The notes beneath the pieces were generated by a model. That model did not search any database and had not been told where the DNA came from. It was given only the letters and a program-made list of their open reading frames with translations. 64,000 nucleotides of DNA from Enterobacteria phage ECP2307: sequence record PP461118.1; one strand, 5' to 3'. Positions 43,272 through 43,560 of the stretch are shown piece by piece (position 1 is the stretch's first letter; every line of letters begins with the position of its first letter). A program made the position numbers and the translations under genes.

Positions 43272-43300
43272 CTAGGTAGCCTCTTCGGAGGCTCCTTTTT
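43272..43300 (+). terminator. rho-independent terminator (GCCTC-TTCG-GAGGC plus T-run)
   Basis: Read directly after cassette stop. Confidence 0.55.
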
Positions 43301-43560
43301 AAAAGGTCTTTAAACAGGTTCTTTTAATAAGGCTCGGCAATGTTCGGCATGGTCTGGTATAGTCCGGTGCTGTTCGGCGTGGTAAGGTGAGGTATGGGTA
43401 GTTAATCGGAGCTACATTAAAATTCGATTACATCACTTAAGAGTCTTCTAAGAGGATTTTTAAGTGTTGTGAGGCGAGGTACGGTCGGGTATGGCTATGT
43501 CTGGTATGGTTTGGTATGGAAGGATGGCAGTAGCCTTATAAAAAATCTGCCAAATAAGCT
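43296..43560 (+). repeat. right pair of modular repeat units (same leader / GT-rich / hairpin modules in swapped combination)
   Basis: Hairpins AATCG/CGATT and GGCAG/CTGCC keep the loop consensus of the left pair. Confidence 0.65.

Follow-up and report, generated by a model that had tools for sequence, protein, structure and literature searches.

The window analysed here, 64,000 nucleotides of Enterobacteria phage ECP2307 (PP461118.1), contains a locus in which two protein-coding genes are flanked by four repeat units, each about 130 nt long: a left pair at 41897-42159 and a right pair at 43294-43551 (Table 1). Each unit consists of an AT-rich leader, about 10-13 GGY-NN pentamers (GGT or GGC in a fixed register), and a hairpin tail with a conserved loop. 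There are two leader types. Type A reads CATCACTTAAG...CTTAAGTGATG in general and CATCACTTAAG...CTTAAGTG in R2, and type B begins with CCTTTTTAAAAGGTCTTTAA. On the left side, leader A is joined to a AGCTACATTAAAA hairpin (L1) and leader B to a TAGCCACGTTAAAAAT hairpin (L2). On the right side, leader B carries the AGCTACATTAAAA hairpin (R1) and leader A a TAGCCTTATAAAAAAT hairpin (R2). An earlier, sequence-only reading of this region had described a clean terminator at about 43272-43300, two tandem units after it, and a swap of leader and hairpin types between left and right. We recovered each of these features: the terminator-like hairpin is directly followed by a T-run, the units after it are R1 and R2, and the swap can be seen directly in the sequence of all four units.

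Table 1. Features of the locus, with positions in the window. Names of genes and RNAs follow the identification given in the text.
Feature	Position	Strand	Details
Sigma-70-type promoter P1	41839..41866	+	TTGACA-16-TATACT; 11/12 consensus matches; kept in all relatives
Inverted repeat around P1	41854-41893		P1 lies upstream of the left vrRNA array and vipr
vrRNA L1	41897..42028	+	Leader A (hairpin arms 41897-41935), repeats 41929-41993, tail alpha1 41994-42028; guide TC CT TC AA TT CA GT GG AA TG TA GT
vrRNA L2	42029..42159	+	Leader B 42029-42065, repeats 42066-42125, tail beta' 42126-42159; guide CT GC AG CG CT CC CG AT AT GT, then conserved GA AT
vipr 5' untranslated region	42160..42235	+	Shine-Dalgarno-like GTGGAG; near-identical across all cassette-bearing loci
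vipr	42236..42823	+	195 aa, RAMP-like, predicted vrRNA-binding; PDB 36pp match
vap1 (Vipr accessory protein)	42826..43266	+	146 aa; shares 99% identity with gene 2 of the SUSP1 locus (L019)
Intrinsic-terminator-like hairpin and T-run after vap1	43278..43302	+	Hairpin 43278-43293; T-run doubles as the start of leader B
vrRNA R1	43294..43430	+	Leader B 43294-43330, 13 repeats 43331-43395, tail alpha2 43396-43430; guide TC AA TC AT CT AT CC GC TC GT AA, then conserved GA AT
vrRNA R2	43431..43551	+	Leader A 43431-43469, about 9-11 repeats 43463-43517, tail beta 43518-43551; guide core GA GA AC CG AT TA CT AT TT
Inverted repeat and T-run	43552..43599	+	Arms 43552-43570 / 43580-43598; surrounds the next gene's promoter P2 (TTGACA-17-TATTTT); the downstream array probably ends here

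The repeats are far from low-complexity sequence. When the window was searched for GGTNNx4 with at most one mismatch, 22 matches were found, every one on the + strand inside the four units, compared to a mean of 0.07 in shuffled sequence. The pentamer period is strictly 5, the second G and the pyrimidine of the triplet are nearly invariant, and all 16 NN dinucleotides are in use. Degeneracy of the repeats, which had been named as an outcome that would count against a modular organization, is thus not what we find. For comparison we assembled 30 related loci, 29 from IMG/VR with the ligase gene as anchor and one from GenBank. Across 1232 triplets from 98 units, the second position is G in 98% and the first in 76%, values obtained with a parser biased towards GGY. 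Leaders and hairpins hardly vary from phage to phage. The NN positions are hypervariable while the GG[T/C] triplets are kept, even among phages whose flanking genes are 90-98% identical.

The tails are structured. We aligned 24 distinct tails of four types (alpha1, alpha2, beta and beta') without gaps and modelled them with a pseudoknot helix of 4 bp and a hairpin of 7 bp; under this model 93.9% of cells are paired. When the 3' partners were slid by 1-3 columns as a control, pairing fell to 28-38%. Both-sided, compensatory changes occur in 9 of the 11 pairs (3/4 in the pseudoknot and 6/7 in the hairpin), with pseudoknot variants GTAG/CTAC, GTGG/CCAC and AAGG/CCTT and stem variants AGTCTCA, AATCGG, GGTAG and GGCAG. 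Leader A also forms a hairpin with conserved arms. By inspection, its loop accommodates an insertion of 22 nt (AAATTATATTCGATAGAGTATCTCAT-like) in the right arrays of L010, L016 and L026, and no compensatory changes were seen in this hairpin among the relatives. That such insertions in the loop are tolerated speaks against leader A being a simple promoter. A scan of the leaders for sigma-70-like promoters found nothing above chance, including those of R1 and R2, which stand behind the terminator.

The protein encoded between the arrays identifies the system. The product of 42236-42823 matches PDB entry 36pp, 'SUSP1 Vipr protein', over its full length (residues 1-195, E=2.1e-128), and by tblastn it is 97.9% identical to the phiSUSP1 protein. 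Thirteen of the 14 contact residues named in the cryo-EM preprint are present (H17, K33, R39, E71, M72, K82, G87, K88, R138, C173, D177, W178 and R179). These residues contact the GGY triplet, the skipped base and the non-target strand (bioRxiv 10.64898/2026.04.26.720920, 10.64898/2026.04.26.720927). The preprint gives the fourteenth as T175; position 175 is V both in the window and in SUSP1's own sequence (L019), and T175 is probably a numbering or naming slip. Directly downstream of vipr lies a vap1-type gene. Neither cassette gene contains a Pfam domain, and a PHROGs search of both returned only families of 'unknown function' (phrog_5926 for vap1).

According to two preprints from one laboratory, which constitute the published support for the system, VIPR (Viral Interference Programmable Repeat) is an RNA-guided DNA-silencing system first described in 2026 (bioRxiv 10.64898/2026.04.26.720920, 10.64898/2026.04.26.720927). 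A VIPR locus, as they describe it, comprises Vipr, a minimal RAMP-fold protein, a vap gene, and vrRNAs made of 9-16 YNNGG repeats and an invariable tail. Members of the SUSP1 clade have a Vipr more than 90% identical to that of SUSP1, a limit that the window protein exceeds, and a tail containing a pseudoknot. The second SUSP1 gene is named vap1, with a predicted DNA-binding role. Small-RNA sequencing of the SUSP1 phage revealed one vrRNA upstream and three downstream of vipr-vap, and these RNAs of ~100 nt co-purify with Vipr in a complex that represses transcription (10.64898/2026.04.26.720920, 10.64898/2026.04.26.720927). Our parsing of the SUSP1 locus (L019) gave the same 1+3 units as the published sequencing. 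The PDB match and the features of the locus therefore identify 43294-43551 as the downstream array of a type II VIPR locus, with two vrRNA genes. The upstream array, also of two, is 41897-42159, and vipr and vap1 lie between them. The guide-RNA genes in the window thus belong to a kind of system that is already known.

Two candidates were set aside. Primase or Chi-like sites were dropped after the match to 36pp. A CRISPR array was rejected on the 5-nt GGY/NN period inside 130-nt units, the lack of an Rfam match and the lack of a cas1/cas2-like gene nearby; an Rfam search of 41000-44500 in E-value mode returned only noise, with no match to CRISPR or any other family.

The mechanism has been established experimentally for the near-identical SUSP1 locus, and for this phage we infer it by homology. 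Each unit would give rise to an RNA of ~100 nt. One Vipr protomer would bind each GGY triplet and so build a helical filament, which the 3' pseudoknot tail would cap. The exposed NN dinucleotides would then pair with double-stranded DNA, skipping every third target base (NNxNNx...), and DNA binding would repress transcription. By analogy with SUSP1, R1 and R2 should be transcribed despite their position behind the terminator, and all four window RNAs should be expressed, processed and loaded with Vipr.

SUSP1-clade guides are stated to target a satellite, the baseplate protein of which shares 72% identity with that of the phage (10.64898/2026.04.26.720920 / 10.64898/2026.04.26.720927). With the baseplate region of the window as a blastn query, 474 of 5426 complete E. 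coli genomes gave a match to a 'phage baseplate protein', at up to 93% nucleotide identity over ~540 bp. In strain 15A the gene is part of a ~11-kb island flanked by yciI and tonB. The island also carries two serine recombinase genes, one small and one large, an HNH gene and a tape-measure gene, the baseplate gene itself being Dit-like. We collected 84 such satellite loci (927 kb) and searched them with 77 unique guide codes from 31 phage loci, the window and its 30 relatives. With a skip of 1 nt, 62 of the 77 guides match at 80% or more of their NN positions, 31 at 90% or more, and 3 perfectly. At the same 80% threshold, skips of 0, 2 and 3 gave 3, 5 and 4 guides, respectively, and guides shuffled in order gave 5. 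These data independently reproduce the published 1-nt skip code without use of the authors' data.

We examined the four window guides individually after trimming the conserved last repeats (GA, AT). The best target of vrL1 matches at 23/24 NN positions (L086 1252-1286, minus strand) and is non-coding, adjoining a TTGTCA element. The vrR1 guide matches perfectly (22/22) at two loci, L032 718-749 and L100 6117-6148, on the minus strand within a 144-aa satellite ORF. In the homologous match in L086 the skipped bases fall at codon position 3, and the target context is found at 100% identity in complete E. coli chromosomes. For vrR2, the target (17/18, L094 3495-3520) is at the 5' end of the satellite's small serine recombinase gene, where it spans codons 11-19 (NIGYIRVSS) and thus the surroundings of the catalytic serine. 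Here too the skipped bases are at codon position 3; the context occurs in 25 E. coli genomes and is found at 100% identity in complete chromosomes. With 9 NN, the vrR2 guide core is short, and its score depends on the trimming of conserved end repeats: before trimming the guide reaches 18/22, near the level of control searches. None of 200 order-shuffles scored as well as any window guide, and other skip lengths gave 14-18 matches. The variety of satellites was needed for this result: against a single satellite locus (L031) the window guides scored 0.62-0.71, and good matches came only with the 84 variants.

The vrL2 guide distinguishes the satellite from the phage. It matches the Dit-like baseplate gene of the satellite at 19/20 positions (L034 5180-5208), with the skipped bases at codon position 1 rather than at the wobble position. 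No self-target was found in the window; the best self match is that of vrL2 at 56703-56731 (15/20). This site, on the minus strand, lies in the phage's own Dit-like gene, the homologue of the vrL2 satellite target, and it differs at 5 of the 20 positions read by the guide. With 19/20 in the satellite and 15/20 in the phage's own copy, vrL2 tells the satellite gene from the phage gene. None of the four window guide codes occurs in another sampled locus, and vrL2 has a near-identical relative in L024. Taken together with the SUSP1 work, the phage most likely deploys this locus to silence a parasitic satellite in E. coli.

A DNA-level role for the arrays has to be weighed against this. The G/C strand asymmetry downstream of a strong promoter is extreme, and the (GGNNN)n runs could form two-tetrad quadruplexes, so that a G-rich non-template strand might act as an R-loop or G-quadruplex replication origin or recombination hotspot, like the pentameric switch repeats of immunoglobulin genes. 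However, such a role requires neither a conserved pyrimidine in the triplet nor dinucleotides that match satellite genes at a 1-nt skip, and vipr, which lies between the arrays, encodes a vrRNA-binding protein of solved structure. In addition, 3 of the 30 relatives (L017, L018 and L020) lack the arrays altogether, indicating that the arrays are not essential. We regard this explanation as very improbable.

Nor do we favor a role for the RNAs as decoys or sponges for a ring-shaped RNA-binding protein of the TRAP or CsrA kind, or as type III antitoxin-like repeats that neutralize the product of the downstream gene. The triplets with period 5 do resemble TRAP binding sites, and the order of promoter, tandem repeats, hairpin and gene resembles type III toxin-antitoxin loci. 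However, the units are ~130 nt long with hypervariable cores, not identical 36-nt repeats, and their NN code has specific DNA targets. Vipr matches a RAMP-like filament protein and is not a ToxN-like nuclease, and the region has no Rfam match. We consider this role extremely improbable.

The sequence-only reading had proposed that the repeats bracket a mobile or recombining two-gene cassette, and it suggested a comparison of related genomes for variability between the flanks. A search with 40600-44100 gave matches in 259 phage records, of which nearly all are Felixounavirus and the best is vB_EcoM_P54 (95.8%). By tblastn, ~117 of these ~259 GenBank phages carry vipr. The comparison bore out the expected variability: vipr-vap is present in 19 of the 30 related loci and absent from 11. 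Eight of these 11 keep one or two solo units (L006, L009, L014, L023 and L027-L030), and the other 3, named above, have none. One of the eight, UAB_Phi87 (L027, JN225449.1), is a complete genome; it retains two vrRNA units and has no vipr or vap anywhere. The number of units per side also varies among the relatives, from 1 to 3 on the left and from 1 to 3 on the right.

The orphan units are related to the arrays of cassette-bearing phages. Solo-unit guides are shared with first-left units (L027 with L005 and L013; L014 with L008, L021 and L026) and with last-right units (L028 with L003 and L008), a pattern to be expected from recombination between the flanking arrays. Matches to satellite sites at 81-86% persist for some of the orphan guides. 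GGY integrity is 0.71 in orphan arrays, 0.74 in left arrays and 0.83 in right arrays, with no clear sign of orphan decay.

We then asked which modules stay together. Among the 98 units, all eight combinations of a unit's own leader and own tail occur. The tail type, in contrast, predicts the leader of the next unit in 48 of 50 junctions, with alpha1 followed by B and alpha2 by A. These data indicate that the conserved module is a tail plus the following leader, with variable guides in between. The end modules are bound to position: the array after P1 opens with leader A and the one after the vap terminator with leader B, and the last tails are beta' before vipr and beta before P2. The order in the window (A-alpha1, B-beta' / B-alpha2, A-beta) is the commonest arrangement. 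The left-right swap is real but largely reflects where the boundaries between units are placed. Reshuffling of modules, from which the earlier reading had suggested recombination between copies, nevertheless does occur. Of the 60 families that the guides form, 7 have several leader/tail combinations or are found on both sides. An identical guide joined to different tail types shows that modules are reshuffled.

Do the repeats then serve mainly as recombination substrates, as direct repeats delimiting a mobile or excisable cassette? The presence or absence of vipr-vap among relatives, the guides common to solo units and to the outermost units of cassette-bearing phages, and the identical guides with different tails all fit this explanation. 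So does the nucleotide identity of vipr and vap across loci (93-98%), which exceeds that of the ligase gene (83-96%), also when Suspvirus-like loci are included. However, Pfam and PHROGs searches of both cassette genes found no recombinase or transposase, and no second insertion site was seen: tblastn with Vipr matches each phage record once, and in all 19 cassette-bearing ligase-anchored loci the cassette lies between the ligase gene and g127. There is no visible target-site duplication or fixed end, and junctions fall anywhere in the leader/tail modules. Furthermore, another function of the repeats has been demonstrated, and a specific code relates their variable parts to satellite DNA. We consider this explanation unlikely. 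The data support recombination within and between arrays, including loss or gain of vipr-vap; they do not support a self-mobile element. Of the earlier proposal, the variability between the flanks stands, and the notion of direct repeats as recombination sites of a mobile element does not. The repeats are genes for guide RNAs that the cassette's own protein uses.

We are highly confident in the overall explanation that these are the guide arrays of a type II VIPR locus, with a satellite as the probable object of silencing and with leader/tail modules that would provide homology for shuffling. By way of the homology in these conserved junctions, related phages would gain, lose and exchange guide units and the vipr-vap pair.

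Satellites may carry guides of their own. Fourteen of the 84 satellite loci have a GGY/NN array, which runs on the opposite strand to the tape-measure gene (L036, L037, L038, L043, L048, L059, L061, L063, L067, L086, L100-L102 and L108). A Vipr homologue was found in none of the 84, and satellites with arrays would have to borrow Vipr from a phage. A wider proposal, which we put forward tentatively and think rather less likely than its negation, is that the junction modules replace spacer acquisition by recombination and that orphan and satellite vrRNAs function through Vipr supplied in trans. Homologous exchange between co-infecting phages, and possibly satellites, would then swap whole guides and occasionally delete vipr-vap, and the orphan units of vipr-less Felixounaviruses and the arrays of vipr-less satellites would borrow Vipr from a co-infecting phage.

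Other features near the locus were also noted. P1 and P2, which flank the VIPR locus, are each embedded in an inverted repeat (41839-41893; 43552-43599). Where the P1 region differs, in L017, L018 and L020, the arms differ yet stay complementary (CATAGCAAGT/ACTTGCTATG, TAGTGGGT/ACCCACTA and CCTGACGGGT/ACCCGTCAGG). These inverted repeats may represent promoter-stem-loops that covary, somewhat like the PeSL modules found in T4-type phages. Upstream of P1, after the stop codon of the ligase gene, some relatives carry one of two alternative inserts of 150-250 nt, each small-ORF-like, the first in L002, L003, L019 and L028 and the second in L004, L007, L021, L025 and L027; the window has neither. 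Elsewhere, positions 1-850 of the window form a non-coding stretch of ~850 nt in which a (C)TTAACA / CTAACAAG motif recurs ~25 times or more at a spacing of ~10-11 nt; the stretch may represent an iteron region, an origin, a terminus or a regulatory region.

VIPR is a newly described way in which RNA reads DNA, through a gapped code, and it has been proposed as a precursor of CRISPR. The window adds nothing categorically new to this. It does confirm, computationally and independently, both the 1-nt skip rule and the role of the satellite as target, and it provides concrete predicted targets for four new guides, one of which separates the satellite baseplate gene from the phage copy. At the level of populations, the additions are orphan arrays without vipr, the fixed pairing of a tail with the next leader, and the shuffling of guides between tails. 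These observations, which a search of the first VIPR preprint for 'orphan' and 'recombination' did not turn up, bear on how VIPR guides could be renewed without adaptation machinery, a subject on which nothing was found in the parts of that preprint consulted.

The closest known system is the type II VIPR locus of SUSP1. The two share a Vipr that is 98% and a vap1 that is 99% identical, GGY/NN repeats, a pseudoknotted tail, arrays on both sides of vipr-vap, and the same genomic site after the DNA ligase gene, and with a 1-nt skip the guides of both find their matches in the same E. coli satellite. They differ in the phage that carries them, here a Felixounavirus (a Felix-O1-like myovirus) whose ligase gene is 86% identical at the nucleotide level to that of phiSUSP1 (L019), and in the number of vrRNAs, 2+2 here and 1+3 in SUSP1. 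Class 1 CRISPR-Cas is alike in that a RAMP-fold protein (Cas7 on crRNA) polymerizes along a guide RNA, a thumb flips out bases periodically, and a variable guide is capped by a conserved handle. In contrast, VIPR is phage-encoded, has no repeat-spacer array, adaptation genes or nuclease, and uses a non-contiguous guide, with 2 bases out of each 5 in the RNA reading 2 out of each 3 in the DNA.

Two further systems are similar in part. The TRAP sites of Bacillus trp leaders consist of (G/U)AG-NN repeated ~11 times and are bound by an oligomeric protein with one subunit per triplet, as in VIPR. The spacers of TRAP sites carry no information and the RNA is the regulatory target, whereas in VIPR the spacers are the information and the RNA is the guide. 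The PeSL (promoter-early stem-loop) cassettes of T4-type phages are reportedly intergenic promoter/stem-loop modules that flank optional genes and are said to give homology for modular shuffling, which makes them a candidate likeness to P1 and P2. Unlike in PeSL cassettes, the repeated modules here are functional RNA genes themselves.
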